From Ostreococcus lucimarinus (taxonomy: Eukaryota), in the NCBI GenBank assembly GCA_000092065.1, contig CP000589.1: a DNA stretch of 64,000 nucleotides. One strand, 5' to 3'. Below the pieces are notes generated by a model. That model was given only the letters and a program-made list of their open reading frames with translations, did no database searches and had not been told where the DNA came from. Position 1 is the first letter of the stretch. Each line of letters starts with the position of its first letter. The position numbers were made by a program, and so were the translations under genes. Below, in pieces: positions 2,595 to 55,300 of the stretch.

Positions 2595-4109
2595 ATGGCG
2601 ACGACGCGACGGTCGAGCGCGGCGAGGCGCGCCGCGGCGGCGCGCGTCGCGAACGACCGCGACGACGACCGCGACGACGACGACGACGAGGACGCGATGA
2701 CACGCGCGGAGGCGACGGAATCGACGGAAATGGAAGACGATTGCGACTTCGTGCGCGAACTCCCGGGCGCGTCGGGAGGGCTCGAGGAGGCGACGCTGGC
2801 GGCGATGCGGGGCGTGTCGCTGGGAGACGCGTGCGCGGCGGCGGGCGTGAGGACGCTGGCGCGAGAGACGCGAGATGGGGACGCGGTGATCGATCGAGAC
2901 GCGGCGGCGGCGACGACGGAGCGGGCGCTGGACGCGGCGATGCGGGAAAAGGCGCTGGTGCTGGAGAGATACGAGGGAAGGACGCACTCGGTGAAGGCGA
3001 AGGAGGGAAGCGTGCAGGGGGCGTTTCAAAGGGCGGTGTTCGCGAAAAAGTTGCACGAGAGGATCACGACGCGCGTGCGGGAGGAGGTGCGAAGACGAGC
3101 GGAGAGCGATTTGAGAACGGCGAGACGAGCGGCGCAGGAGAGACAGTTGAGTGGGAGGCGAGACGCGAAGGCGGCGATGGACGCGAAACGAGAGGCGCCG
3201 CATAAACCGTGGTTCTTGTTGGAGACGCCGAAGGATGAGCAAATGCGATTGCGAAAGGCGGCGATGGTGGACGCGGCGAACGCCGAGGCGGGCGCGGACG
3301 CGGGCGCGGACGCGTCGTCGTCGTCGTGGACGATGCCGGGGAACGTGACGATCGAGCCCGTGCCAGATACCACGGATGAATCGGTGCTAGGTGCGGTGAG
3401 GATGTGCATTTACATGGTCCAGTCGCATCCGAGACCGATTCAGAAGGTTTTGGACTACCTCTTTGGGTACTCGCCCGCGGTGGACGGCGAAGACTTGGAA
3501 GAAATCGACGCGTACTCCAAAGGGCTCCCAGTGTCGCGCGGTCGAATGCCGGCAGATTTGGCGTACTCGTACGCGGCGAATCTCGACAAAACTCTCGGCG
3601 AACGAGACAAAGTGGCGCTCAAGGCGCTCATCAAGGATGTCAAGGAGGAGTGGTCGTCGCACATCAAAGCCGGGTTCGACGCGGTGAAGGAGCTCGAATC
3701 CACCCCGCTCGACTCCGCAGAGGACATTCGCGTGCAGAATCGCGACAGTTGGCTCCGCGCTATGTTCCCAACCCTCGATTGGCCGACGAGAAACGAGAAA
3801 AATTATAAGTTCATGGAGCATTTGCGCGAGCAACAAGCCTTGGACGCTCGCACCGCAGTCTCGACGTCGCGACCAGTTCCCTTGGCTCTCAGTCGCGCCA
3901 ATCGCGCCAAGCAAGCGCAAGAACAAATTCAAACTTATGATCTGGGTGGCTCAAAGATTCACTACAGCAAAGATGGCGTCCCGATCATTGCTCCCGATGG
4001 TTTCTTCCCCAAGGCGAACACCGCGCCTTCGAAACGCGCCGAGACCGCACGCATCCGTCTCGCCGCCTCCGACGCCGAACGAAGGCTCGCCGAGCGGCGA
4101 CGACTATAG
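2595..4109 (+). CDS. hypothetical conserved-looking protein (504 aa), family not recognised
   Basis: ATG-initiated ORF. The C-terminal ~300 aa have ordinary, non-repetitive composition (VRMCIYMVQSHPRPIQKVLDYLFGYSP, WLRAMFPTLDWPTRNEKNYKFMEHLREQQ). Head-to-head with the U2A' gene across 218 bp. Confidence 0.6.
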   Translation: MATTRRSSAARRAAAARVANDRDDDRDDDDDEDAMTRAEATESTEMEDDCDFVRELPGASGGLEEATLAAMRGVSLGDACAAAGVRTLARETRDGDAVIDRDAAAATTERALDAAMREKALVLERYEGRTHSVKAKEGSVQGAFQRAVFAKKLHERITTRVREEVRRRAESDLRTARRAAQERQLSGRRDAKAAMDAKREAPHKPWFLLETPKDEQMRLRKAAMVDAANAEAGADAGADASSSSWTMPGNVTIEPVPDTTDESVLGAVRMCIYMVQSHPRPIQKVLDYLFGYSPAVDGEDLEEIDAYSKGLPVSRGRMPADLAYSYAANLDKTLGERDKVALKALIKDVKEEWSSHIKAGFDAVKELESTPLDSAEDIRVQNRDSWLRAMFPTLDWPTRNEKNYKFMEHLREQQALDARTAVSTSRPVPLALSRANRAKQAQEQIQTYDLGGSKIHYSKDGVPIIAPDGFFPKANTAPSKRAETARIRLAASDAERRLAERRRL

Positions 4110-5518: not shown

Positions 5519-5939
5519 ATGGGCGCCACCGCCCTCACTGCCGTGTTCGGCGCCGTCTCTGGCGTCGGCTGCGCGGCGTTCGCGAACGGCTTGCGCAAGC
5601 TCCCACCGTTTTCACGTGCGTTGCTCCCCTCGCGCGTCGCGTCGCCGCGCCGAACGCGTCGCGACGCGATCGATCTAGGGTTGGATGTCGCGCACTCGCG
5701 ACGCGACGCCACCGCCTGACGCGCGAATCTCGCGCCGCGCGATCGGACACTGACGAAGTGTTGTTTGTTTACGTCACGCAGAACCCTGGAAGCACGCCGT
5801 GGCGGCGGGCGTCGGTGCGGCGGCGTTAATGTACAACGCGGATTTGGAAACGTCGCTCAAGGAGGACGTGGAGCGCTTGCGGGCGACGCGCGCCGAGCAG
5901 AACGCGGAGTACATGGCGGAGATACGGGCGAAGCGATAA
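5519..5939 (+). CDS. two-exon gene for an 84-aa Gly/Ala-zipper two-TM protein (possibly MICOS Mic10-like; unverified)
   Basis: Exons 5519..5615 and 5782..5939. The 166-nt intron runs from 5616 GTGCGT, through a CTGAC branch site, to ACGCAG 5781. The phase-1 junction restores the frame: MGATALTAVFGAVSGVGCAAFANGLRKLPPFS-Q-PWKHAVAAGVGAAALMYNADLETSLKEDVERLRATRAEQNAEYMAEIRAKR*. The ORF track shows only exon 1, read through into the intron (5465..5719). Confidence 0.5.
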
Positions 5940-6067: not shown

Positions 6068-7716
6068 CTAATAGCCAGCCAAGTCCATCAAATTAATTTC
6101 GCTTTGGCAGTGACGCATCTGCTTCGTGCGTCTTAAGCCACTGGGGAGAGGTAAGGTCTCTGGGATCGTGGGTGGATGCAGCGCCGGCGCGCCCGAGTCG
6201 CGAAGAATCTCGTATCGCATCGACTGAACATCCAACTTATCGTCATGCGACGCGTCAGAGTTCGACAAACGATCATCTGAGATGCGCCGTTTAGAGTTTT
6301 GTTGATGTAGCTGCTGATCGTCGAGCGTTGTGTGCTTCATCGGTGCGAAAGATAGGGGCTTTGCGTTGTCCTCATCCTCAACCAACGCCGACAAGTCTGG
6401 ACAGCTTTGAAATGACTTTAGCGCTGAAGTCTTCTCATCCGGATTAGCCTTAACGAAACGACCCTTCACGCGAACGCGCGCGTCTGCGAGCGTTTTACGG
6501 CATTCATAGCGCACCACTTTCTTCAACCCCATCAATCGACGCTCGCGCTTGGCGCGATATCTGTCGAGCTGCGCTTGGCGCTCCTTGCTCACCACGCGTC
6601 GAGGGATGCCGAAGAGATCGCTCGACATCGGCATCATTATGGGTGGAAAAGCCCCGGGTGGATAGGAACCTACCGTCTCTGCGGGCCCACGCTGCGCCGC
6701 GGGCAGTCCCAATCCAAGAGGCGACGGTCGCGGAGTGAAATTATCTCTCGCGCTCTTCGAGACGTACGCCTTGGCGGCGGCTTGATTCGGGCTCACCGCT
6801 TGAATCTGATCCGCCACCGCCTCCAGAGCGGCGGAAATAGACGCCGCATCGCCATCGAATAAAAGCGCCGACTCTGTTTCGGGCATCTCCAGCAAAGAAG
6901 CCAACGGATCGTCGTCCAAATCGAAAATCATCGTGTCGCTATTACTCGACATTCGCGGCGCCCTTGGACTCGTATCCTCTTCTCCGTTCTCACCTAAATT
7001 CAAAAACACGCCCACATCCCACGCACTGATCGTCGCGTCCATGCTCGACGTCGAATCGTGCGTCGTCGTCTTCGCATCGTCCCTCTTAAACAAACTGAAA
7101 CTCTTCTCCCTCAAACTCTCGCTCGTCCCGCGTCCTCGTCCGTCCTCGTCCTCGCGCCTCGCGCTCGCCGTCGCGCTCGCCGCCGCTTTCCAATCCCCGC
7201 ACTCCTTCGCCTCACTCAATCCCGCCTCGAGCGTTCGTTTATACCACTCATCCACCGTGATCCTCTCGTGTCTCGCCGCGACCTACGGCGTTCAACCGCG
7301 TCCCGATCGTCAGTCCGTCGCGTCGTCGTCTCGCGCGCCCAGTCGACATCGCTCGTTCGCGCGCGCGTTCGTTTCGCGAATATCCGCGCGCGCGCGCACC
7401 GCGTTCGCCCCGTGCACGCGCGCGTCGCACGTCGCGCACAGGAACGCCTCTGCGCCGAATCGAAGCGCGATCGCGGGCGTAAAAAATCAGTCCCAATCCT
7501 CGTCGCGCGCGTCTCTCGTCGCGCGCGTCGCGCGTCTCTCGTCTCTCGTCTCTCGTCGTCGTCGTCCATCCGCGTCAGCGCGCATCGTGTCGCCGCGCGC
7601 GCGTCCATCCGCGTCTTTTTCGCGCGTTCGCGACGCGTCTCTCGTCGCGCGCGCGCACCGTCGGCGAGACAAAATATATCGGCGTCGCGCGCGCGACACG
7701 CCGCGCACGCGGGCAT
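6068..7716 (-). CDS. CONSTANS-like transcription regulator (one B-box + CCT motif), three exons
   Basis: Exons 7716..7659, 7449..7400 and 7282..6068. Introns are 7658..7450 (GTGCGCG..GCGCAG) and 7399..7283 (GTGCGCG..CTGAC..CCGTAG). The joined B-box is CAACRARDADIFCLADEAFLCATCDARVHGANAVAARHER. The CCT motif is RYRAKRERRLMGLKKVVRYECRKTLADARVRVKGRFVK. Frame is kept: 58+50+1215 nt = 441 codons. Confidence 0.8.
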
Positions 7717-7911
7717 CGCGACGGCCGCGGCGTCGTGTCGCGCGCGCGATGGCGCGATGGCGCGCGTCACCGTCACACGGAGACACGCGGATCAACGACT
7801 TTGTCGAGACTCGGATAAACACACGGATCTGTGGACATCGATCGTCGACGCCGCGCCGCGCCGCGCGACTCGACGACGCGACGCGACGCGACGCGATTCG
7901 GGACGCGTCGA

Positions 7912-9198
7912 ATGTCGTCGCGCGTCGTCGCGCGTCCGACGGTCGCGCGCGACGCGCGGCGCGCGCGCGCGGGCGCGATGGATGGGCGACGAAGGCTGCC
8001 GACGACGACGCGGGGACGACGCGAGCGGACGCGCGCGGGCGCGGGCGCGCCCGGAATCGACGAGATGCTCGACGGACGCGAGCGGAAGTATTACATGGTC
8101 GGAGGCAAGGGCGGGGTCGGGAAGACGTCGCTGTCGAGCTCGCTCGCGGTGAAGTTCGCGAGCGCCGGGCACGAGACGCTGGTGGTGAGCACGGACCCGG
8201 CGCACTCGCTGAGCGATTCGTTGGCGCAGAACGTCAGGGGAGGGCAGCCGGTGGAGGTGAACGATACGGATGGGATGCTGTACGCGCTGGAGATCGATCC
8301 GGAGAGCGCGAAGGCGGAGTTTACGCAATTCGCGCGGGCGACGGACATGAGCGGGGGGGCGAGAGATTTTATGAGCTCGGTCGGTTTGGGCGGGTTCGCG
8401 GACTCGATCGCGGATTTGAAGCTCGGGGAGCTCTTAGACACGCCGCCGCCGGGGTTGGACGAGGCGATCGCGATCGCCAAGGTGTTGCAGTTTACGAAGG
8501 ATGAGAAATTTAGCAAGTTTACGCGCATCGTCTTCGACACGGCGCCGACGGGGCACACGCTGCGGTTGCTGTCGCTTCCGGATTTCCTCGACGCGTCGAT
8601 CGGGAAGATCGTGCGATTACGTCAAAAGCTCACGAGCGCGACGGATGCGGTGAAGGGGATCTTCGGCGTGGGTGAGGACAAGCAGGACGACGCGGTGGAG
8701 AAGCTCGAAAAGCTCAAGGCGCAAGTCAAGGAAGTGCGCACGCTGTTTCGAAACAAAGACACCACCGAATTCATCATCGTCACCATCCCCACGGTGCTAG
8801 GCGTGAGCGAATCGGGCCGCTTGTTACAAAGCCTTCGCGACGAGGACGTGCCGTGCAAGCGGTTAATCGTCAACCAAGTGCTCAAGGTGAACGTCGACGA
8901 CTTTAAAGCCACCGCCGCCGAGGCGCGAGACGCCCAAGACGCCCTCGTCGCGCGATTATCCGGCGACGACGCGGAGGCGTTACAAAAGTACGTCGATTTG
9001 AACGCCAAAGCCTTGAAAGCGGCGCAGGCCGCGGTGACGTTTTGCAGCGTCAAGGAAAAAGACCAGACGCGCGCGTTGCAAATGTGCGAAGAAGACGCGG
9101 GATTAAACTCTCTCAATCGCACCGACGCGCCGCTGTTTGACATGGAAATTCGCGGCGTTCCGGCGTTGAAATTCTTCGGCGACCAAGTGTGGCGATAG
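7912..9198 (+). CDS. GET3: ArsA/GET3-family ATPase with organellar transit-peptide-like N-terminus
   Basis: The ORF-track start 7831 is GTG; ATG at 7912. Motifs: P-loop MVGGKGGVGKTSLSSSLA, STDPAHSLSD, FDTAPTGHTLRLL. The N-terminal ~60 aa are R/S/T/A-rich. Confidence 0.85.
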   Translation: MSSRVVARPTVARDARRARAGAMDGRRRLPTTTRGRRERTRAGAGAPGIDEMLDGRERKYYMVGGKGGVGKTSLSSSLAVKFASAGHETLVVSTDPAHSLSDSLAQNVRGGQPVEVNDTDGMLYALEIDPESAKAEFTQFARATDMSGGARDFMSSVGLGGFADSIADLKLGELLDTPPPGLDEAIAIAKVLQFTKDEKFSKFTRIVFDTAPTGHTLRLLSLPDFLDASIGKIVRLRQKLTSATDAVKGIFGVGEDKQDDAVEKLEKLKAQVKEVRTLFRNKDTTEFIIVTIPTVLGVSESGRLLQSLRDEDVPCKRLIVNQVLKVNVDDFKATAAEARDAQDALVARLSGDDAEALQKYVDLNAKALKAAQAAVTFCSVKEKDQTRALQMCEEDAGLNSLNRTDAPLFDMEIRGVPALKFFGDQVWR

Positions 9199-12351: not shown

Positions 12352-14688
12352 TTACACGCGAAAGGACTTTGCGATCGCCTCGATCGCCTCGATGGCGCTA
12401 GATTCCACCCGGTCGTTGTGTGCGATCGATTGCTTGAGGGCACGGATGATATCGCGCGCGGGCGCGACGGCGGGCGGCGCGGCGCGGAGCCAGTCGGCGG
12501 GGAGGACGTCGACGACGGCTTGAAGCGACGCCGCGCACGCGGCTGGATCCACGAGCTGTAAACGCACGTAAGGGATGACTTGGGCGCCGATGATGCCGTC
12601 GGCGACGATGCGCTGAAGCGCGGCGCGGTCGACAATATCTTCAAACGCGAATGCGCTTCGAACGAGATCCAAAGCGAGTCGGAATTGAGCTTGGGCGTGA
12701 CGTGCGGCGTTTGGCGCGCACGTGGCAACTATTGGCGAATACGTCGGTACCGCGCATTCCTCTGCGCATCGCTTCAGTCGACGTTGTAACGCGATGACAA
12801 TCTCCTTTGCCTCTTCGTTCGCGCTCGGTTCGACGTAGACGAAGATATCCTTGAGCGTAGACGCCAGAGCGCGCGATTGCGCCGGATCTCGCGGTTCCCA
12901 CCACTCTTCCACAGCCTCCGATGCGATCGGTAAAACGACGTGCTGCACCATGTTGGGCAACAAATTCGCATCTTCGTCACCTTCGTCGATTTTTCCATCA
13001 ATCACGCCGTAGTCGAACAGTTGTCCGTACCAAGACATTGCGTCCAACGCGCCTGGCGCAGTTTTCCCAGCGAGCGGAAACAACGGAGACCATCCAATCA
13101 GTTCCAATCGCACGAAAGGAGCGAAGAGATTAGGGACGGAGACCGACATATACGTGCTCTTATACGAACCAAGGTGCGTGCGCTTCCATTCCTCGGCGTG
13201 CCTTTTCACCGCGCTGAGCGTCGAGAACTCTTCTGACGCGTCCTTGAGCATCGAGCTCGCCGCGTCTCTGGCGTCCGCCCAATCTTTGTGAAGCAATCCG
13301 ACCTCGCGTTCGTCCTCAGCGACCGCCATTGCCGTGTCGCTCGACTCACGTCGCTTTGATCGCGCCTTGACTTTTTCCCGCATCGCGATGTTCAAGTCTC
13401 TGCCCATGTCGTCCAACTTTTCACCGTGCAAACCTTTGGCGTTGAACACGGCGTCCCGAATAGCCGTCACCGCAGTCGCCTTCGCCTCGGTCTGCGAACC
13501 GCTGCGTTGTAACACTGCGTTCACCGCTTCCGCCGCGGCTTCCGCTTCGATCGCGCTCTCCTCGAACTCGGCATTCATCGCCTGCGTCAGCGCTTGCGCT
13601 CGTTCCGCGTGGAATTTTCTATAATGCTCCTCGAGCTCGTCTAAGATGAGCTTCTTTTCGTGCAGCATGGCGCACGCGTCTCTAAAGTAATCGCGCAACT
13701 TTTGAGTGAACACGTATCGCTCACTCGCATCCTTGAGCTCCTTCTCGTAAAACGCCAAAGCCTCTTGACTCTTCACCGCGTTTTCGTCGGCGCGAGTCGC
13801 CTCCCTTCTCGCCGTCTCGCTCGACGACTCCGCTGCCTCCAACGCGCGTTTCAAACTTTCGAACGCTTCCATACCACCTCGTTCGATCGAAACCCCAGTA
13901 CCCGCCCGCTCCATCGTCGCTCGCGCGTCCCGAGCGCTTCGACGCATCTCCGGCTCGTCCCTGAACACGCGTTGCAACTGCGCGCGCTCAAACTCATCGT
14001 CGTCGCTCCCCGGCAAGATATCACCCTCCACGTACCCCGCATACCTATCTCGCGCACCACCGTCTCGCACGCTCTTAAACGCCACGCGCTCTCGGCGTCC
14101 GCCGCTAGAATCTAAGTCGACGTAATCCGCCGCCGTCGATTTCGCCCTCGCCGCCTCCCGCTTCGCCTTCGCCTCCGCGATCGTCTTCGCGTCCGGAATC
14201 ACCGTTCCCACCCCCCCCGCCGTCTCGCGCGCCGGCGGCGGCGGCGTCCACGCCTCCGCGCTCGTCCCTCCGAAGACGTCGCTCGCCGACCGTCCCGCCG
14301 TCCCGCTCGCCGCCGCGCCCCCCCTGTCCTCCGGTCGATCTCGCAGCGTCGCCTGCTCGCGCCGCAGCGCCGCCAGCGCCGCCGCGTCGTACGTTCGCGT
14401 CTCCCCCGTCGTCGTCGTCGTCGTCCCTCGTCGCGCGTCCATCGCCGCGACGCCTCGTCGTCTCGTCGCCTTCGCCGCGCGCGCGTCGCCGCCGCCGCCG
14501 CCGTCGTCCTCGTCGTCGTCGCGCGGCGCGTCGTCCTCGAACGACAGCAGCGCGCGCGCGCTCGACGCTTTCTTTCGCGCGCGCGGCGTCGTCGTCGCCG
14601 GCGTCGCGTCGTCGCCGTCGCGCGTCGCGTCGCCGTCGCGCGTTCGATTCGCCGACGACGATTTCGTCGCGCGACGACGGAACGCCAT
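12352..14688 (-). CDS. GC-rich-sequence DNA-binding factor-like (GCFC/PAXBP1/NTR2-type) protein
   Basis: The C-terminal half is collinear with the GCFC domain (YKSTYMSVSVPNLFAPFVRLELIGWSPLF, MSWYGQLFDYG, LLPNMVQHVVLPI, WWEPRDPAQS). The track start 14844 is GTG; the first ATG is at 14688 (MAFRRRATK). Confidence 0.75.
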   Translation of the reverse strand: MAFRRRATKSSSANRTRDGDATRDGDDATPATTTPRARKKASSARALLSFEDDAPRDDDEDDGGGGGDARAAKATRRRGVAAMDARRGTTTTTTGETRTYDAAALAALRREQATLRDRPEDRGGAAASGTAGRSASDVFGGTSAEAWTPPPPARETAGGVGTVIPDAKTIAEAKAKREAARAKSTAADYVDLDSSGGRRERVAFKSVRDGGARDRYAGYVEGDILPGSDDDEFERAQLQRVFRDEPEMRRSARDARATMERAGTGVSIERGGMEAFESLKRALEAAESSSETARREATRADENAVKSQEALAFYEKELKDASERYVFTQKLRDYFRDACAMLHEKKLILDELEEHYRKFHAERAQALTQAMNAEFEESAIEAEAAAEAVNAVLQRSGSQTEAKATAVTAIRDAVFNAKGLHGEKLDDMGRDLNIAMREKVKARSKRRESSDTAMAVAEDEREVGLLHKDWADARDAASSMLKDASEEFSTLSAVKRHAEEWKRTHLGSYKSTYMSVSVPNLFAPFVRLELIGWSPLFPLAGKTAPGALDAMSWYGQLFDYGVIDGKIDEGDEDANLLPNMVQHVVLPIASEAVEEWWEPRDPAQSRALASTLKDIFVYVEPSANEEAKEIVIALQRRLKRCAEECAVPTYSPIVATCAPNAARHAQAQFRLALDLVRSAFAFEDIVDRAALQRIVADGIIGAQVIPYVRLQLVDPAACAASLQAVVDVLPADWLRAAPPAVAPARDIIRALKQSIAHNDRVESSAIEAIEAIAKSFRV

Positions 14689-14804
14689 CGCGACGCGCGC
14701 GCGCGACGACGGCGCGAAAACGACGGAATCGGCGTCGCGCGTCGCGTCGCGAGAGCGCGTCGCGCGCGCGCGTGTGGCGCGTTCATGAATGAATCGATGC
14801 GTCG
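14689..14804. promoter_or_regulatory. 116-bp bidirectional promoter region between head-to-head genes
   Basis: Inferred only from the divergent ATGs at 14688 (-) and 14805 (+). The region contains out-of-frame ATGs at 14785 and 14789. Confidence 0.4.
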
Positions 14805-17800
14805 ATGGCGCGCGCGCGTTCGACGAAACGGCGTCGCCGCACACCGACGCGCGCGCGCGGCGTCGCGCGCATGGAGCGCTCGAGCGCGCCGTCGCGCGCC
14901 GTCGCGTCGACGCGCGCGCGCTCGCGCGCGTCGAGCGCGTCGAGCGACGTCGACGCGTCGCGCGCGGTGTCGAACGCGCTCGCGCGTTTGAAAACGCTCG
15001 CGACGACGACGACGGCGCGGGAATCGCGCGCGCGCGGCGCGGACGTCGCGCGCGCGATCGTGGACGCGTTCGAGGCGCTGGCGCGCGCGGAGGCGCGCGG
15101 AGGACGACGGGCGGAGGGAGACGCGGTGGAGGCGGCGCGACGCGCGGCGCTCGGACGCGCGGCGGACGACGACGAGGGGAGGGAATCGGACGGCGAAAGC
15201 GAGCGCGACGCGCGCGCGGTGGACGCGCTGTATGGATTGCGGCGGGCGGTGCACGCGGAGGGGTGTTCGGGGGACGTGCGGGTGAATTGCGCGCGCGTGG
15301 TGGAGGCGTTCGCGCGCGAGCCGGCGTCGACGACGACGGAGGCTCGGTGGCGCGCGCTCGTGGATTGCGTGCCGAACACGCCGAGGTCGGGACGCGAGAT
15401 CGTGGCGATGGCGTCGCCGAACGCGCGCGTGGGCGTCGGATCGCGGGATTGGGCGTTGAGCGTCGGCGCGGCGTTGGCGACGGCGGCTCGATGGAACGAC
15501 GTCGCGGCGACGGAATTGTTTGAACTCATCGACGATAAGATTCAGGGAGGCGCGGGCGAGCGCGTGGTTGGGTTGACGCTGCTTCACGCCGCGCTCGCCG
15601 TCGATGGTTTAGTCGCGAGCGATGATTTAGTCGTCGCCGTGCACAAGGCGTTGACGGCGGTGAGCGGCGCGCCGGTGGAGAATGGATTCGCGTGCGCGAG
15701 CGTCGGCATGCGTTGCGTGTGCGCGGCGGCGAGGAACCTTTCCATGGGCGACGTCAGGACGTTACGAAGCGCGTGGCTCGAGCCGAGACTGCGTGCTCAA
15801 GGATTTACCTGGCACAGCGCGCAAAGCGACGAGTCGCGCGCGACGCTTTCGCTCATTGAATATTTAAAAATCCCGCGAGACGAGCGGCTCGGCGCGACGG
15901 CGATGTCGGCGTTTTTGATAGCTGATTTGGATCTCGTCGGTTACGTCGACGCCGAGGAGTTCAAACGCAAAGTCGTGCACGGGTCGGTCGATCTGGATAG
16001 TCCGGCGTTTCGCGCGCTCGCGGCGAGCGAACGCGCCGTCGGACGAACCGTCGCGGCGGCAATCATCGCCACGCAAATGAATCTCATTCACACGCTTTAC
16101 GTCGCACCTGGTCAAGAAGATGACGCGGACGAGTTACGGATGAAAGTAGCTACTGAGGGTGGAAGGATTCTGTGCGGTAAAGCTCTCGATTTACTTCGAC
16201 TGGAGCGCGCGAATACGGCGAGTTTGACAGAGAACGCGCAGATGAAGGTTGAGGAGCTGACCACGGATGCTCAACCGAGCACGTTCTTCGGGGTTTTGAG
16301 CTACGCACTGACGACGAACGTGATCGATATCGATGAAAATGAGCGCGCAAAGCTCGTTTCGTGGTGCTGCGACAAATTGAGTGAAAAATTCGTCACCGCG
16401 ACGGATGCTTCGATGCGCGCGATGATCACCTCTGGCTGCTTGAGCGCTCTCTTACGCCTCGCCGAGACATCGGAGAACGCAGCGATGGCGGACGCATGTA
16501 TGCAGTGCGTTTCGGTGCTCATCGATCTGATATTGGTACCTAGCACACTGTACGACTTTGTCGAAATCATAGCCTTCAAAACACCGTCGTTGGATTTACT
16601 CGGCGTTGAGAGCAAGTCAGAGGACGACAAACGAGCGACTTACGTGGTGGCGGCGCTGAATTGGTCGGTGTCTCGTATTCGAGCCTCATCGACGGTTGCA
16701 CAAGCCGACAAATCACTCAACTTATTCAGAAGATTATTTGTCTTGCTCCCGGAAACGGAGCACACGACTTGGTTGGAATATTTCACTGACGCGTACGCGA
16801 GCGCCGCGTTGTGGGCGGGCTGCGTCGAAAAAGAAGTCGCGGTGGATACTGACCGCGTGCTCGCAGATGACGCGGCGCGCAAGTGTGTAGAGTCGTTCGA
16901 AGCTGATATCTCACGCGAGACATCGAAAAAGACGCCAGAGTGGTTGGGAAATCTTCAAACGCGCGCGAGATGGTTGAATGAAGCGTTTGCTGCGCTCGGC
17001 GAAGACGCCTACCTTAGAGCACACTTCACCGCAGACCTCGCCGCAATCGTGTCAAAGTCTGTGGATGTCGGACTCCAAGGTTCGACCGACCCGAAAGTCA
17101 ATGCATCGTACTGGCCATATGAAAGCAAGCGTCCACTCATCGTCCCTCGCGCGCCGCTGGGACCGGGTGGTATTTTGGCGACGTCGGCTGCGACGTTTGA
17201 TCTCATCGCCAAGCAGCTTGAATCGCAATTTCTCGCGATCGAGACGAGTTTGCAGAAATCACTGATGGAACACACTGGTCTAATTCACATGATGACCACG
17301 GTAACATCAGCCGTCGCCGCCGCTGGCGTCGCCATCAAGACACCGGGCGGCGCGAGCGCGGGGCGCGTCGCCGCCGCCGCCGCGCGAGCGCTCGTCCTAG
17401 TGGCGCAATCCATCACGCATCTGCACGTCACTGTTAACTGCAGTGAGATGCAATTGAGAAACGAAGAACGGGAGCTCCTGTTGCTCACCAAACAGTTACT
17501 CGAAGCGTCCAACGTTATGGAGCAAAGGAAGACGCTTGAAGCCGCGCCGGGGGTGCATCGCCGTCGCTACGCCGCGGCCCGCGCGGCGTTGGCTCGCGCC
17601 CTCAGTCTCACCGATGCCTCCTCCGAAGACATCAAATTCGAGCTCAACAAAATTCGCAAGCGTCGACACTCAAAGCGCTGGACGGAAAAGCACCAGCGTC
17701 CACCGACCGCGCCGCGTCCCGCCTCCGCCGTCAACTTCACCGCTCGCGAAGCCGAGCCCGACGACTTCGTCGACGAGGACGGCGTCTCCATACTCGAAGC

Positions 17801-23938: not shown

Positions 23939-24022
23939 GTTTTTTTGACGCGACGGGACTGGACGCGTCGACGCGACGAGGGGTGCCGTGGTTTTTCGAC
24001 GACGCGACGGGACTGGACGCGC
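23918..24022. repeat. tandem duplication, 2 x ~51-54 bp, spanning the helicase start codon
   Basis: Copy 1 is cgacgcgacgaggggtgccatgtttttttgacgcgacgggactggacgcg. Copy 2 is cgacgcgacgaggggtgccgtggtttttcgacgacgcgacgggactggacgcg. Only copy 1 carries the ATG (catggcacc on the minus strand). Confidence 0.8.
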
Positions 24023-24038
24023 GCGTCGAGACGAGCGC

Positions 24039-24176
24039 GGGAGAGAAGAGAAAATTGCGTCGATCACACGAAGGAAGCGCGCGCGCGCCGGGTGCTCGAG
24101 ACGCGAGCGAAGCGACGCGCGCTCAACCGAGGGCGGTTAAACCGCTGGTGCCGAGCGTCTCGAGCTTTTCGAACGC
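24039..24176. repeat. direct repeat copy A (138 bp), partner of 27355..27463
   Basis: 24056-24087 equals 27370-27401 (32/32 nt) and 24115-24176 equals 27402-27463 (62/62 nt). Copy A has a 27-nt insert (24088-24114). The left ends are degenerate (gggagagaagagaaaat versus gggagaagagaagag). Confidence 0.9.
24123..24176 (-). pseudogene. orphan duplicate of the last 17 codons plus stop of the APX gene
   Basis: The minus strand reads gcg ttc gaa aag ctc gag acg ctc ggc acc agc ggt tta acc gcc ctc ggt tga (AFEKLETLGTSGLTALG*). This is identical to APX 27410-27463, but here it lies 3.3 kb from any peroxidase body. Confidence 0.8.
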
Positions 24177-24249
24177 TTTTCGAACGATGGTAGATTTCCC
24201 GGTACGAGCCAGACCCTTGACGTAAAACACGACGTCCCAACCGTCATGA

Positions 24250-26874
24250 TTAAGAAAACGCGAGTAGATTTTCAACGGTCACACGGCGCGTCTTGACAAT
24301 CGCCAACAACTCAACTGAAGCGATGGACACCAAAAGGAAGAAAAACGCGGCGTTACCACCCGCTTGAGACAAAACTTGAAGCGGAGGTAGCTTGTACTTC
24401 CGTGTACACGAGTATGGGAAATTTTCTTTAGTCCAGGCACACATTCGATCGCGACCGATTTCATCAAAAATTGTGCGGAACGTGTTCAAGACGAGCGCGT
24501 CATTTCGATCCATCACTGCCGTATAGCTCACCGCGATGCCGCCCGCTTTATATTCATCTGTTGTGAGTATCAAGGAGCCATGTACTGTTCCGCTGATGTG
24601 GTTGGTAAAATTGGTTTGCTGATTTTGAAAAAAGGTGTCGAAAGTAGCGTTCACCGTGCCCATCATATTTGCGTAGTACTTGTATGAAGGACCAAATCTG
24701 CCCCACGGACGGAGGTAAGCCGATGGCTGCCGCCCATAATCCGCGTCACTATAGCTCAATATCCCTTGGCCAGGTCCAAATGAAGGCGTGGACTGCTCAA
24801 GCTCGCTTAAACCCGAGTTCGTCAGCGATGGTTCTTCGATTTTGGCTAAACATTCATCGTATGTCCAATTCTTGCCATACCAGATAGCGTCCTTCAATGG
24901 ACGACACGTGAAACCTTCCTTTTCGAGGACATTTTCTACCACCGTTTCCGTAAACTCCTGAGTCGCGTAAAACTGCAGGAGCAACGCAAATACAATCAAA
25001 GAGGCTGCCCCGAGAACAAAGCACACTAAAAGTGTGCGTATAGGTGACATGACGAGGTCCAGATCGGTCACTCGGAACCACTTGTCCTCCATCGGTAAAC
25101 GTGCCTTCCAGCCCAGAGGATTGCTCGCGGGGAGGCGCTTGATTATGATGGCCACTATCCACATGAGGCTTGCGGCGATGAACTGAGCGTTACCATATGA
25201 GAGAGAGAGGCGCGTGAGTGTATCGGGCGGGCCTGACTTTTTGCACTCGTACGGCGAGTTTTCCTTCGTGAAAAGGCACACCTCGTCGCCTGCGACATCC
25301 ATCATGGCTTTCCACACCTCGACTGCATCCGCCTTGAGTGCGTCTGTCCATGAGTTGGAAGGTGCATTGATTAGAATACGAGTCGACTGGGGTTTTCCTC
25401 CAACGAGAAACGAAGCCGGATCTTCCCAGTGATCGAGATCGGTCGTCGCGCTGTATTGAGTCAGCGTAGCGTTTGGGCGTTCTTTGCCCCAAAACGCTTG
25501 CGATGAAACGCCTTCTTTGGATGCATTAAACGGAACATATTTCGCTTTGATTGGGACCGGATTCGGCATGTTCAATGGATCGCCCTGCCAGGATTCGAAA
25601 TTAATATTATCCACCGTGATGTCCTGTAAAGCAGCCTTGCAGTCGTCGAACGTATATCGCACACCGTAACCGAGGTTGTCTGTCGTCAACGGCGTGCAGT
25701 TGTATCCAGGCATTGCCCAAGAACCTGTGATTTGAATATCGGTGATGTACTGCGAAGTCGACGAAAAGTACTGGTAAAACCATGCAAACGTTCCTACACC
25801 GACGGCACAGATGGTAAGCGAAAAGAAACCAACGACCAGCGTGTTCGACACGAATTCGAGCGGCTCCTCGTCGTAAAATTCGGGAGGAAAAGATAACTTT
25901 TCAATCCAGGTTTTCTCATTGGTAGCCTTTGGAGCTTTGCGGAAAAAGCCTATGAAGGTGGGTAAAGTAGCAAGGAACACGGTGATCACGAGCCCAGCAT
26001 TATTATTCGACAGACCAATCATTTCTAAAGCAGTCATTCTTTTCGACTTCAAACACTTGTACGGCAAGTTGTGCTTGGTGAATTCGCACACGTCGCCTCC
26101 ATTGACGTATTCAATCGTCTTGCTGAACAACTGCAAGAAATGAGCCGCGCTGGTGTTAAAAGTCTCGCAATCGCCGACGATTCCATTGGTGCTGCCACCT
26201 CCGGAACGCCTGATTTGGCCCGCGTTGCACGTCGCGCCAGACGGGTTTGGGTACTGCCTGCAGTCGCCGTTGTTTACAACTTGATTGATGTATGTTTCAA
26301 TTTCTGGCGTACGTGATTCCGGAAGCTTTGGCCAAATACCTCGATGGGCTTGAACACTACCGAACGGATTGTAATACACCGAATTCTTCACCGAGCAGTT
26401 ATAGGGTATAGTGCCCCCGTTACTATAGTCAGTACGTGTCAGGTAACCTCCAGCGGCGATAGCCTCTGCATTGGCGATATCAAAGCCAATTGCACTCTCT
26501 GTCAATGGCACTATCTTCGTTAAACACTCTTCGTACGTATAGTTTAACCCGTAAAATTCATCCGGGCTCAACGGCGCGCAGTCGTAGCCAGCGATCGCCG
26601 TGGAGTCGCTGATGATCGTATCCGTCACCCAGCGCGCTTCGTCCGCGTAGTAAAACAACGACCCGATGAATGCCAAGGTAGCGAGCGTGTGCATCGTCAC
26701 CGCCCCGCCGTAGGCCATCCACACTGGTCCTTTGAATTCGAGATACCGCTCGCGCGCCCAATAAATTTCAGGTACTGGAAGTCTTCGTATGAATCGCTCG
26801 ACGGAGCCCCTCGCCTTGCGCGCGCGCTGCTTGATCGACGAGGGCGCCGGGGCCGATGCCGACGCGTGCGTCAT
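24250..26874 (-). CDS. six-TM membrane glycoprotein made of three tandem TM-Cys-ectodomain-TM modules; family not recognised
   Basis: The track start 26904 is TTG; ATG at 26874 (MTHASASAP). Modules span about nt 26793-25939, 25938-25138 and 25137-24253. First shared motif: GYDCAPLSPDEFYGLNYTYEECLTKI / GYNCTPLTTDNLGYGVRYTFDDCKAAL / GFTCRPLKDAIWYGKNWTYDECLAKI. Second shared motif: GDVCEFTKHNLPYKC / DEVCLFTKENSPYEC / DRMCAWTKENFPYSC. Each module is flanked by hydrophobic helices, and there are many N-x-S/T sites. Confidence 0.75.
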   Translation of the reverse strand: MTHASASAPAPSSIKQRARKARGSVERFIRRLPVPEIYWARERYLEFKGPVWMAYGGAVTMHTLATLAFIGSLFYYADEARWVTDTIISDSTAIAGYDCAPLSPDEFYGLNYTYEECLTKIVPLTESAIGFDIANAEAIAAGGYLTRTDYSNGGTIPYNCSVKNSVYYNPFGSVQAHRGIWPKLPESRTPEIETYINQVVNNGDCRQYPNPSGATCNAGQIRRSGGGSTNGIVGDCETFNTSAAHFLQLFSKTIEYVNGGDVCEFTKHNLPYKCLKSKRMTALEMIGLSNNNAGLVITVFLATLPTFIGFFRKAPKATNEKTWIEKLSFPPEFYDEEPLEFVSNTLVVGFFSLTICAVGVGTFAWFYQYFSSTSQYITDIQITGSWAMPGYNCTPLTTDNLGYGVRYTFDDCKAALQDITVDNINFESWQGDPLNMPNPVPIKAKYVPFNASKEGVSSQAFWGKERPNATLTQYSATTDLDHWEDPASFLVGGKPQSTRILINAPSNSWTDALKADAVEVWKAMMDVAGDEVCLFTKENSPYECKKSGPPDTLTRLSLSYGNAQFIAASLMWIVAIIIKRLPASNPLGWKARLPMEDKWFRVTDLDLVMSPIRTLLVCFVLGAASLIVFALLLQFYATQEFTETVVENVLEKEGFTCRPLKDAIWYGKNWTYDECLAKIEEPSLTNSGLSELEQSTPSFGPGQGILSYSDADYGRQPSAYLRPWGRFGPSYKYYANMMGTVNATFDTFFQNQQTNFTNHISGTVHGSLILTTDEYKAGGIAVSYTAVMDRNDALVLNTFRTIFDEIGRDRMCAWTKENFPYSCTRKYKLPPLQVLSQAGGNAAFFFLLVSIASVELLAIVKTRRVTVENLLAFS

Positions 26875-49302: not shown

Positions 49303-52300
49303 ATGGATTGGGCGTGTCTAAACGACGCCTCGCAACCCCCCGACGACGTCGAACGCCTCGCGCGTCGCACGGCGGAGGCGGAAGAGTCGCGATTGATTTC
49401 CTCGTACGAACACGCCGTGCGGAGAGCCGCGTCCGGAAACGCGCACGAAGCGATCGAGAGCCTGCGCGCGGTGCTCGCGCACGCGCTGACGAATCGCGAG
49501 GACGTCTCCGCGCGATTGCTCCGGGTGAAGTTTCTGTCGCTGAAAAATCTCGGGCGATTGCTGGATGAACGCGGGACGGCGGCGAGCGAAGACGACGAGG
49601 CGGCGCGAACGGATCGAGAGGAGGCGGTGCGGTGCTACGCGAGCGCGGTAGAGATAGACGACACGGATGCGTTGGTGTGGGGAAGATTGGGACGCGCGGC
49701 GGTGGCGGTGGGCTCGATGGCGGTGGCGAGGATGGCTTACGAGAGAGCGGTGAGCGCGAGCCCGCGGAATCAGCTGTTTTTGGAAGACTTGAGCGAAGTG
49801 TGCCTGAGCGCGGGGGATTTTGAAACAGCCAAGGCGTTGGCCGGGGCGGTGATGGAGATTGACCCTGGAAATGCGCGCGCGCGAGCGATGAAACGCGCGC
49901 CGGAGGCGCTGGAACCGACTCGGGCGATGAAGGTGGCGAGAGAAAGAGCGGCGTCGGCGGCGTCGACGAGGGATGAGGGAGAAATCGCGATTCGGTTGAG
50001 CGCGGACATGGACAAGAATTGGGGGGTGATAACCGCATTATTAGCGCGCCTCGGTGGTGCTCCGACTCCGGAATCGATCACGAGGAGCGGCAAAGCGAAG
50101 GATGCCGCTGAGCCCGAGACGCCCGCTGAGGCGGAGAATGCCGACGCACCGGCTACACCGACGCAGTCAAAAGAGGTGGACGTGGTGCCAGGATCGGCAA
50201 CGGCAGACGACGAGGATGTTTCGGAAGATGATGTGATTTCTTCTTCATTCGCAAAGTATATGCGCCACGTGCGAGACGTCCACATCCCGAGAGATGTGAT
50301 AGGGAGAAAGGTTCGATTCGTGTTTGATTCGCCGTCTTCGATGCCGATGGAATTAGGAACGACTGATGTCGTCGATCTGACGGACAAAGACGTTTTGACA
50401 CAACCATCTGTGGACACGCCATCTACATCCCAGCCGGTGAGCGAAGTGAGTGCAAGCCAAGCCAACAAAACGCCCTCCAAGGCGGCTGCAAAGGCCAAGG
50501 CGGCTGCAAAGGCGCAGAAAGATGTCGCTACAATTCGGAAATCGCGACGTCAACTGGAATTAGACGAGAAAAAAGCGCTCGAAGACGAAAAGATGCGCAT
50601 TATCGCCGAACAGGAAGCCATTCAAAAAGCGCTAGAAAAGGAGGAGAAGAGAAAAGCTGCCGAGGCAAAGGAATGGAAACCGGAATCGAACATCTCTCGC
50701 GCTCTGTTGAATTTGATAGGCGCTGAAGACCCAGTCGTGTCAGCGGTAAAAAAAGCAACTACCGACGTCGCGGGTGCCAGAGATCGTGCGAATACCATCA
50801 AAAAGCAACATCAGAGAGAATTGAAGGAGGCAGCTGCGAAGAGGGCGAAAGAGGAGCGTGAAATGAAGACGCATAAGCGAGTTTCTTCATTCGTTAACGC
50901 CATTGACGATGTGCATGCAGGCGCCGCGCACATCGCTTGGCGATTCTTATCTACAACAGCTGCTCGCTGGCGACCGGACACTGAAGATGATTGCTCGCCA
51001 CCTCCTTGGTCGATCATTTACCTGTATCACATCTTTGGCGTTGGACAGGGAGACGAGCTCGCGCCCGTGGCGCGAATATTGTTGTGCATCGCTGACACCG
51101 CAATTCTTGCGGCGCGCGAATGTGCGCTTGGACATCCGGGGCGCACGTACTTCAGAAACATGGCAGTCGGGTTGTTAGACGAGGTATCTTTAGTGATGAA
51201 CCGTGATCCGAAACAAGACTTTCACGCAGAGAGCCTGTTCTTACGTCATAAGCTTGTGGATCTAGATGGCGAAGATCGAAGTGTGAGCATGTTCTACCTT
51301 GAACGGGCGCAAGAAGTTGCTCCGGATGATGCAGATCTCCCGCCGGCACCTGCCTCAATCGAAGATGCCGCACCCGCACGTTTCAGTAAGCAGTCATTAC
51401 GTGCCGCGATGGACGCAATGAAGGTGAAGGAAGTTGTCATTGGCGCCGCGGCGAGATTTGCCAAGGGGCAGACTACCGAAGTAGTATCAACGTTGACACC
51501 TCTACTCTTACCCGATGAAGATCAGGAAGAATCGACCGATAATTTGGACGCGCTTTGCTTGACGCAATCAGAAAAGCAAAATGCACTTAAGGTGCTCGCG
51601 GCGGCGGCGAAAAGGCAAGGTCCATCGTGTGTCGTTATTCAGATAAAAGCTCTCAAGATGGCTTACGACTTGGACGTAACGAAACATCACTCGATGCTGA
51701 GACTCATCGCTGAGGCACTGGAATCCACCGACCGCGCACACACAAAGCAAGCGCTCGAAGTCGTTGAATCTATGGGATTAGCGGCGATCGCGGCGTCGCT
51801 GTTTGAGGCGCATTACACCGAGTTCGCGATGGCACCTGGAGTGAAGAAGAAAAACAAAGCTTCGCGTTATGCTGCCGCAAGCTTGGAGGCTTCAGCACTA
51901 CTAATCTCCGCTATCCAGCGAGCTTCAAAGCCAAAAGATTTGGAACTCATTGAGTTGCATGAGAAACTTCATGATCGCCTCGCGGACTGTCGATGCTGTT
52001 GCGGCGACTATCGGAAAGGAGTGTTTCTGAAGTCGTCTCTTGTCCAGTTGGCCAAATGCAGAAATCGTATTACAAAGGCGCGAGATCAACGACACGCTAC
52101 TGAACCCACAAAAAAGCGGACAACGAAAGTCACCATCGAAAACCGTAGCAAGGACACTTCCGATAAGGTGAAAAGGAAAAAGAAGGTGGATGCGGATGAT
52201 GAGGGTGAATTCCGCCGACGTGTGCGTCGTCAGCGTAGCAGCATCAGTAGCATCGAAGACGACGATAGAACACCGCAAGACAAGGCTGATCGTAAACTTC

Positions 52301-55300
52301 TAGATCGGTTGGATAAACTCATAATCCAGCTGTGTCACTGCGTGTATGGATTTACATTGGATCAGCCCACTCGGAATTGCCGAGAAGAATATGGCGCATG
52401 TACGACCACACTTCATATTTCGAACGAAATGGAAGCCGCCAACCTTTGGTTGGCCATTCAACCTTACGCCATGGTGAACAAGGAAAGTATTCCCAGCGCC
52501 GTCATTGAGGAGATCCGCAAGAAAATATCCGATCCACCGAAGACCGAGCAAGCTACACTTATCGAGAAGTACTTGTCCACAGGCTCAGACGACCTTGCGT
52601 GCTCGTCTATCGCAAACTTTGGAGAGATAACCGAGCAAGATCGACAGCTCGCTCGAGAGCTAATCAGCACGCCGACCGCAGATGAAGTCATCGTTGCTCG
52701 ACAAGGAGGCTCGACTCCGAAGAACGGCCCCAGCGCGCCGCCGACTCCGGTTGTCACTACAGACGTCATGCATTATCTCACGAGTACTCCAACTACAGAC
52801 CGTGCGCTTCGCACCGTTCAATCCGATGAGAAAATTTCGTTGTTTGCGAGCTTTTACAAAACTTTCTTGCAATTTTGTGCAGACATGGACGTTGTTGCGC
52901 TCGAAACATTGCTCGAGGACGAACAAACAGATTATGATCAACTTCATGCGTTGCTTGGAAGTGTTGCATCGTCGACTCCCACGGCGCAGCAATCTGCTGT
53001 GGCGGCCAAGAGCGAGGAGGTGACGAAGCTGTACAAGTTTGACGTCGAGTACAATCCCACGCGCCCGCAAAGTTGGATCGCGCTGGCCGATCACCTGGAT
53101 AACATCAAAGATATCGTTCTTAACGATGCCGCCAAAATCTTGGCAGTCGGCACCTTCCGCGCGTCTCCAATGTTGACAATGCTTCAGTCGACGCAGCTGG
53201 CGATTCGACGGGCGTTGATTGCGGCGGAAGAGGCTTTAACAATGACTCATTATCCTGGACACCCGGAGACGGAGTGGGTGCGGTCACAAATTTACGAGCG
53301 CCTCGGCCAAACTGCGTACGAGCTCGTACAGGATGCTCCACCAATATACGACTCTCGCAAGTTTGCTTTGGTCAAAACTACTCCTACGTACGCATCCACG
53401 CTTGCGTTGTGCAAACAAGCGTTCACGAAAGCTTCCGAAGCTTATCCCGACAATTGGATATACCCCCACTACCTGGCGAAGATCGCGAAAAAAGATGGCC
53501 AACCTTTATCACACGTTCTCGAAACCCACGCACAGGCGCTCGCGATAAAGCCGGGCTGTTTGGAAGCAATCTATCAAGTGACGAATATTCGTTTGCACAT
53601 GCTCTTGTCCATCGAGGTTAGCGGAAGAAAGAAGATGACTCCAGAGTCACAAGCAATCACGCTTTGCGTACTCAAGCAACCGTTTAACCCAGGAGACATG
53701 CAAAATAGTTGGATCGGTGCATATCGAGATTGCATCGTAGCGTTGCTCTTCATCAACAAGAATTATCCCAAGTTCCACAAGGCGAGCTATCGTCTTGCGT
53801 GGGCTCGCTTGAAAAAGTCTCCGGGAGAACTCGGGCACTGTCAAAAAGCTTTGGAGTACCTGAACCCTCTATTCAAAAGTCCTCGGACTGGAACGTTCAA
53901 GATTTTCATGACTGAAATCGATGACACAAATTTGGGCATCAAGACTCCCGTGGAGACGGTCGACGGAAATATTGCGTATGAGTGCGGTATCAGCGAATCT
54001 CGACGACGCTTCATAGCGAACGTTCGCCGTACGCTTCGCTTGTACTTGACGTTGCTTTACACAAACGAGGACATGGGTACACTTGCGGCGGTAGTTTCTT
54101 ACATCACGGACTATTCCAAAACCGCCACGAAAACGCGTCTGCCAATCATCGCGAACTCACAAGACGTGCGCTTCTTTGCTTTCGGACTTTTGTTGCGAGC
54201 CCTTGCGGCAAGGCTCTCGGTTGTGGGTCGAAGAATTCAAGAATCATTGCAGAAAGAACAAGCGTCCATGCTCGCTGGAAAAGAAGGCGCGAATACAGAA
54301 GCGGGTACGCCACAAGCGGCGTCGGTCGCATCGACCAAACTAGATGTGTACCTCGAACAAGCGTACAATGTTTGGTTTGACTTCGCGGTTCCCGCTCGAG
54401 GAAATATGTTGTCTTGGGAGCAAAATGTCGACGAGGCTTTCACACAACTTGAAGTCGAGGAAAGCCGCACCGACGAAGGCCCTGATCTCGTCAAGGAACC
54501 TTACAAGACGGCGTTCAGTAGCGCGAGCAAGTTCACGAAGTCATCACCAGAGATGAATTTCGAACAGTACGCTCTCGAGTGCATAACCGACTTGGAAGCC
54601 AAATCTGACTTGAATACGCTCGCCGCACGGCTATCCCTCTGTCAAAAACGTTTCAGGGAAATCGAACCTGAAGCCGACGCGCAAGTGAAAGAATCAGGCA
54701 TGAATCGTTTGAAGATTCTTGGTAACGCGTTGAAGGATGCGTTCATCAGATGCTCTGCGCCGACGATTGAACTCTTGGCAAAAGGGGAAATCAAGTTATG
54801 CCCGGGTGGTTTAGAAAACGTCGAAGAAGAGACCTCGAAGAAGGACAACGATGCTGTCGTCGACGAAGCGAAAGAAGGTACCGAGGCTGTGAATTCGCCG
54901 CAAAAGTCTACGCCAACCAACTTCACCGAAATCGTCCTCGTCACTGCGCGGCGTCTTCATGTGGTAACGAAGACAGAATCTACGGCACGACTGTACGAGT
55001 TCGCTGTCCAACGACGCAATTCATTGCAAGCTCTGATCGATGCGATTGATTCTGGTAGCACACCAACGGACATGGAAGACCCGAGCGTGCCTGTCGTCGC
55101 TAAACTTCACGCGGAAGTCACCAAGCTAACGGCAAAAATTGCCGAGCTGAAAACAAAGCACAGCAATTTGGTCGAAAGCGCGCTCGTCGCCGAAGGCCAG
55201 ACGACCGATCCAGAACAACTAAAGCTCGTCAAGGAAACGTACGAGGAGCTCACCACTACGATTGTTCGATGTGAGAAACTCAAGGCGGATCACGCCTGTG

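Follow-up and report, generated by a model that had tools for sequence, protein, structure and literature searches.

Three-exon structure and intron-split B-box of the CONSTANS-like gene COL2 (Ol09g01380) of Ostreococcus lucimarinus

Introduction

An open reading frame with a CCT motif lies on the minus strand of a 64,000-nucleotide stretch of the Ostreococcus lucimarinus genome (contig CP000589.1; this whole stretch is referred to as the window), and it raises the question of whether the locus encodes a CCT protein alone or the last exon of a longer, CONSTANS-like gene. The original prediction, made from the letters of the DNA, favoured the latter: two micro-exons upstream of the reading frame were proposed to restore a complete B-box once two introns are removed, and the gene was suggested to be a light/clock regulator. 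The analysis described below indicates that the locus is almost certainly the nuclear gene COL2 (Ol09g01380) of O. lucimarinus CCE9901, with three exons, one B-box and a CCT domain.

Gene model and reading frame

The minus strand of the window between 5800 and 8200 was read, and the proposed segments were joined by script. The features of the gene are as follows.

7659..7716, minus strand: COL2 exon 1, 58 nt, with the ATG at 7716-7714; equals the published exon 199,716 to 199,659
7450..7658, minus strand: intron 1, 209 nt, phase 1, GTGCGCGC...GGCGCAG (GT...CAG)
7400..7449, minus strand: COL2 exon 2, 50 nt; equals the published exon 199,449 to 199,400
7283..7399, minus strand: intron 2, 117 nt, phase 0, GTGCGCGC...CGCCGTAG
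6068..7282, minus strand: COL2 exon 3, 1215 nt including the stop codon TAG at 6070-6068; equals the published exon 199,282 to 198,068

The joined coding sequence of the three exons is 1323 nt long, remains in frame and specifies a product of 440 amino acids; the exons predicted at 7716-7659 and 7449-7400, and the third one starting with VAARHER, are correct at every base. Exon 1 encodes MPACAACRARDADIFCLAD and the first base of E20, ending in ...GCC GAC G ahead of GTGCGCG (phase 1), while exon 2 encodes (E)AFLCATCDARVHGANA and ends in ...AAC GCG, also ahead of GTGCGCG (phase 0). Exon 3 opens with GTC GCG GCG AGA CAC (VAARH, the start of VAARHER), and the joined N-terminus reads MPACAACRARDADIFCLAD-EAFLCATCDARVHGANA-VAARHER.

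The GTGCGCG start that had been predicted for both introns is present in each of them; the heptamer itself is not enriched in the window (72 matches, as compared to 61 ± 8 expected from shuffles), and on its own it is therefore no evidence of a donor site. Its use as a stand-alone splice-donor signature was accordingly dropped. Intron 1 holds a CTGAC along with low-complexity repeats of the GACGAGAGAC type. Intron 2 contains both of the elements foreseen for it, namely a CTGAC, 31 nt from its 3' end, and an acceptor TAG, which is the in-frame stop truncating the naive reading frame. Since this TAG stops the frame, the naive six-frame ORF at 6068..7255 (395 amino acids, GTG start, directly after the TAG) has the appearance of a CCT-only protein, just as the original prediction had described it. 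The first ATG of exon 3 occurs only at residue 116.

Identity with the published gene

Table S3 of a comparative study on the circadian and light-sensing genes of Mamiellales (ISME J 2025, PMC12704426) gives O. lucimarinus COL2 as Ol09g01380, with exons 199,716 to 199,659, 199,449 to 199,400 and 199,282 to 198,068. All six exon ends equal the predicted coordinates plus 192,000, which corresponds to about 198.07-199.72 kb of chromosome 9, and the 399 nt printed for Ol09g01380 agree at every position with the minus strand of the window, counting from 7716. The window as a whole thus covers approximately 192,001-256,000 of chromosome 9 of O. lucimarinus CCE9901. An exact-sequence look-up identifies the 440-residue product as ABO98031.1 / XP_001419738.1 / UniProt A4S2F2. 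The chromosome segment, the six boundaries and the product are all identical to those of Ol09g01380, and nothing differs except the names: the public entries are called "predicted protein [Ostreococcus lucimarinus CCE9901]" and, for A4S2F2, "CCT domain-containing protein", with the B-box going unmentioned.

The gene model has thus been known since the annotation of 2007; the name COL2 and the assignment to the B-box-CCT class had appeared in print by 2017-2025. The same comparative study lists three COL genes per Ostreococcus species and states that introns across the B-box are mispredicted in most COL models of Mamiellales (PMC12704426), which is the phenomenon that the original prediction had noticed at this locus. 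With the gene, its exon structure and its CONSTANS-like class already contained in the 2007 annotation and the 2025 study, the finding carries little weight as a discovery. Its value is that of a calibration, the three-exon model having been recovered base for base from raw sequence in a gene family whose intron-split B-box is often missed by automated pipelines.

B-box of the joined protein

The claim that a B-box becomes visible only after removal of the two introns is borne out by the Pfam search, in which the joined protein scores 25.2 bits against zf-B_box (PF00643; curated cut-off, 24.1) over a single stretch, residues 2-45. The joined N-terminus also fits the predicted CONSTANS B-box signature residue by residue, with the ligand spacing C4-x2-C7-x8-C16-x2-D19-x4-C24-x2-C27-x4-H32-x8-H41. 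The zinc ligands are split 4 + 3 + 1 among the exons, C4, C7, C16 and D19 being located in exon 1, C24, C27 and H32 in exon 2, and H41 in exon 3.

Against the solved B-box chains of Arabidopsis COL2 (7vsp) and CONSTANS (7vsq/7wsj), the first 60 amino acids give E values from 1.5e-20 to 2.4e-19; these are values per protein for the whole sequence (1.5e-20 for COL2 and 2.4e-19 for CO), and both B-boxes of either plant protein align to one and the same query segment. A comparison with plant COL B-boxes had been proposed along with the original prediction, and the alignment to B-box 1 of Arabidopsis COL2 is gapless over 44 residues, with every Cys, Asp and His ligand in register. A second B-box is not detected by Pfam, and the residues after 45 display neither a Cys/His pattern nor a cysteine-rich stretch. 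The Pfam score, the solved chains, the micro-exons conserved among relatives and the published model together establish that the B-box is more than a chance match.

CCT domain and class membership

The CCT domain is located entirely in exon 3 (residues 271-315) and scores 56.9 bits against Pfam CCT (PF06203; cut-off, 28.4). Solved structures matched by this region include the CCT chains of Arabidopsis CO and rice Hd1 in the NF-Y complexes 7c9o, 7cvo and 7cvq (E 1e-7 to 6e-5), with an insertion of 2 residues in COL2 as compared to the plant CO/Hd1 proteins. As a single B-box and a CCT are both found in the joined protein, the predicted CONSTANS-like class holds, and COL2 possesses the two defining features of COL/BBX-CCT proteins. 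The two tandem B-boxes of CONSTANS proper (BBX group I: CO, COL1-5) are not present. Nor is COL2 one of the CMF proteins (CCT-motif family, CCT only), which are defined by the absence of the B-box that appears here once the introns are removed.

O. lucimarinus COL2 shares the B-box ligand spacing with Arabidopsis CONSTANS/COL2 and rice Hd1, and its CCT is homologous to the CCT by which CO/Hd1 bind NF-Y; it differs from Arabidopsis CO/COL2 in having one B-box instead of two, and from CO/Hd1 in lacking a flowering context. Its architecture resembles that of the plant single-B-box COLs (BBX structure group III). Among algal proteins, CrCO of Chlamydomonas reinhardtii (Cre06.g278159) is, by description, likewise a B-box and CCT protein. 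According to work cited in PMC12704426 and PMC5508029, it is tied to photoperiod, to the cell cycle and to the control of starch and lipids, and it reportedly complements the co mutant of Arabidopsis.

Conservation of the locus among relatives

The orthologues of COL2 in other Ostreococcus species are as follows.

O. tauri: ostta09g01510 (Q011X0), COL2 orthologue
RCC809: Od09g05010 (locus L002), COL2 orthologue
O. mediterraneus: Ostme10g01280 (locus type L005/L006), COL2 orthologue

A database search with the joined protein mostly returns prokaryote-style ORF calls from marine metagenomes that cover the CCT exon only, several of which start at "VAARH.R", i.e. at the beginning of exon 3. A cluster of 99% identity includes a transcript of Ostreococcus sp. 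'lucimarinus', and one of 40% identity includes the O. tauri protein Q011X0 / XP_003081141.1, which is annotated as "Zinc finger, B-box". The gene order ArsA/GET3-type ATPase - COL2 (CCT gene) - Josephin is kept in four related loci (L003-L006), and Pfam confirms the ArsA and Josephin neighbours in the window.

Two micro-exons are located upstream of the CCT reading frame in every relative locus of sufficient length, including L003, L005 and that of RCC809. Modelling these micro-exons by homology gives identical intron positions, phases and GT..AG ends in four species, all of which also have a CTGAC 28-40 nt from the intron 2 acceptor. Nucleotide identity to the window is 66-80% in exons 1 and 2 as compared to 52-63% in the introns, and shuffled sequences give a baseline near 50%; exon 2 is the best-conserved segment across species (76-80%). 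Eight of eight zinc ligands and the CCT core are invariant in a protein alignment of the four Ostreococcus-type orthologues. Lineage-conserved motifs also occur in exon 3: DDPLASLL, ASISAAL, PSPLG.G.PA, QSCPDLSAL and the C-terminal RHCQSEI.L of O. lucimarinus take the four-species forms DDPL.S, SI..AL, PSPLG.G.PA.Q, QSCPDLSA and RH.QSEI.L, respectively.

O. tauri COL2 likewise consists of three exons, its introns interrupting the B-box at the two positions found in O. lucimarinus; it possesses a single B-box and a CCT, and it has the C-terminal RH(C/S)QSEI.L motif in common with O. lucimarinus COL2. The amino acid identity between the two is about 40-48%, the middle of the protein being highly diverged. 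For this gene, the exon lengths of 60 + 54 nt in Table S3 of PMC12704426 imply an intron 1 that starts with GG (...GCGGAT followed by GGTGGGTAAA); a shift by 1 nt, to exons of 61 + 53 nt, provides a canonical GT donor and a phase-1 intron as elsewhere, when the donor side only is considered. A deposited model from O. tauri RCC1115 (P0089, OUS48986.1; 381 amino acids), orthologous to window 7282-7716, joins MGTTCAA directly to VHSANSVAARH, by which most of the B-box is deleted; it exemplifies the faulty splicing of COL B-boxes to which PMC12704426 refers.

A further COL2 orthologue is found in L001 (GCA_014466335.1, JACLAB010009507.1; proteins P0032 and P0120), the locus of which has a GC content of 0.53. 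This type is abundant in metagenomes, on contigs of up to 540 kb, and a 414-residue member of its cluster carries the spliced B-box (MRSTPCAHCAREAATTYCAADEAFLCAQCDVVVHSANEVAARHRRV). The assignment of the P0032/P0120 cluster (GC 53%) to Bathycoccus, which would contradict the B-box loss reported there, was rejected, since its sequence is unlike B. prasinos CMF2 outside the CCT.

Transcript evidence and alternative readings

Splicing across the B-box is evident from MMETSP transcript-derived proteins of the O. mediterraneus type. P0106 and P0111 (443 and 446 amino acids) carry the spliced B-box, and their N-terminus, MPACASCARDNACVYCVHD-EAFLCVACDAHVHSANA-LAARHERIT, is what splicing of the L005-type locus yields. 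A cDNA-like contig of 1692 nt encoding P0106 (L007) maps to the genomic locus L005 in three blocks, with breaks exactly at 3626/3791 and 3840/3947, the coordinates derived earlier by homology; both introns are therefore confirmed by transcripts in a sister species. A search with the N-terminal 116 amino acids for O. lucimarinus-clade transcript proteins with a spliced B-box returned exon 3 fragments only, and with no junction-spanning transcript of O. lucimarinus recovered, support for splicing in this species comes from homology and the standing annotation. Junction-pattern scans of the metagenome contigs (O. lucimarinus exon 1/2, and a degenerate exon 2/3 pattern that O. mediterraneus fits as well) gave 0 matches, and the positive control thereby built in, O. 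mediterraneus with its known spliced cDNA, yielded none either; the collection evidently holds no such cDNAs, and these counts are uninformative.

The alternative that COL2 is in fact a CCT-only, CMF-like protein translated within exon 3, with the B-box pieces being chance matches in GC-rich non-coding DNA, would agree with the CCT alone in the prokaryote-style gene calls and in the UniProt name of A4S2F2, with the lack of GTGCGCG enrichment in the window, and with the CMF proteins reported to carry the CCT alone in the related genus Bathycoccus (PMC12704426). It is extremely improbable, however, given a B-box above the Pfam cut-off with E values of about 1e-20 to the solved CO/COL2 B-boxes, micro-exons whose position, phase and sequence are kept in four species with diverging introns, and a spliced cDNA known from the sister species. 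Such a protein would, moreover, have no ATG in exon 3 before residue 116, and the 395-residue ORF has only a GTG start, right after the intron TAG. The B-box scores, the four-species micro-exons and the sister-species cDNA effectively refute this reading and leave the three-exon COL2 in place.

A different possibility is that both forms are made, a regulated retention of intron 2 (or 1) yielding a CCT protein devoid of the B-box beside the full-length COL2 and tuning its activity. A 390-residue MMETSP ORF of the O. mediterraneus type (P0110, flagged complete) starts with MMINHQ, where a Met first follows the in-frame stop of the intron 2 acceptor, and coexists with the fully spliced P0106 and P0111; likewise, an O. 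'lucimarinus' MMETSP ORF (P0042) starts at M116 (MDAT...), where exon 3 has its first Met. P0110 and P0042 are explained equally well, however, by pre-mRNA left unspliced, by assemblies truncated at the 5' end or by an ORF caller taking the first ATG, and the two-form reading is considered unlikely. The more specific proposal, that the introns dividing the B-box are used for regulated retention to obtain full-length COL2 and a CMF-like protein from the internal Met, is slightly more doubtful still; if true, it would represent an alga-specific modulation of a clock or light output factor.

Putative function, expression and upstream region

In CO and Hd1, the CCT forms a DNA-binding trimer with NF-YB/NF-YC, and the B-box allows oligomerisation or the binding of partners in a zinc-dependent manner. 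Going by its homology to CONSTANS/Hd1, COL2 would likewise contact DNA through its CCT in association with the histone-fold pair NF-YB/NF-YC, and its B-box, judging from the plant proteins, would support oligomerisation or protein-protein contacts that depend on zinc. The COL2 product would then act as a transcription regulator.

The O. tauri orthologue OtCOL2 (ostta09g01510) is one of two named COLs of that species and displays a rhythmic/diel expression with a minimum around ZT0 (PMC5508029), which makes COL2 a candidate for the integration of light and clock signals. COL2/CMF2 is also co-expressed with phototropin across the Tara metatranscriptomes (PMC12704426). A putative role in light/clock output has been published as a hypothesis based on these two observations, and the light/clock suggestion of the original prediction agrees with that hypothesis and with the expression data of the O. 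tauri orthologue. COL2 is a candidate for a photoperiod/clock output factor in an ecologically important marine green picoalga.

The region upstream of the gene is described by one feature.

7717..7990, no strand assigned: intergenic region, short, GC-rich and rich in CG repeats, lying between COL2 and the ArsA/GET3-type ATPase gene (plus strand) arranged head-to-head with it

This region is presumed to comprise a bidirectional promoter along with the 5' UTRs. Upstream of COL2, neither the window nor two orthologous loci contain an Evening Element, a CCA1-binding site or a G-box, and clock control is consequently not visible at the motif level.

Neighbouring features of the window

A small gene of two exons (~5519-5617 and ~5781-5939, plus strand) appears to lie between the Josephin/UBX gene and COL2, as judged from a probable exon join with the donor TTTTCAC/GTGCGT and the acceptor CGCAG/AACCC. 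Its predicted product of about 84 amino acids (MGATALTAVFGAVSGVGCAAFANGLRKLPPFSQPWKHAVAAGVGAAALMYNADLE...AEIRAKR) belongs to no Pfam family, and conserved counterparts of its last 37-46 residues lie at the corresponding place in L001, L002, L003/L004 and L005.

Dense low-complexity tandem repeats rich in CG occupy 7499-7564 (intron 1) and 7846-8049 (the intergenic region and the 5' end of the ArsA gene). Those of intron 1 have periods of 7-16 nt; positions 7944-7977 form a (CG)17 run, and there are also runs of CGACG/CGCCG pentamers. The local GC content reaches 0.72 at 14001-16000 and falls to 0.50-0.53 at 24001-26000 and 50001-54000, the mean of the window being near 0.61.
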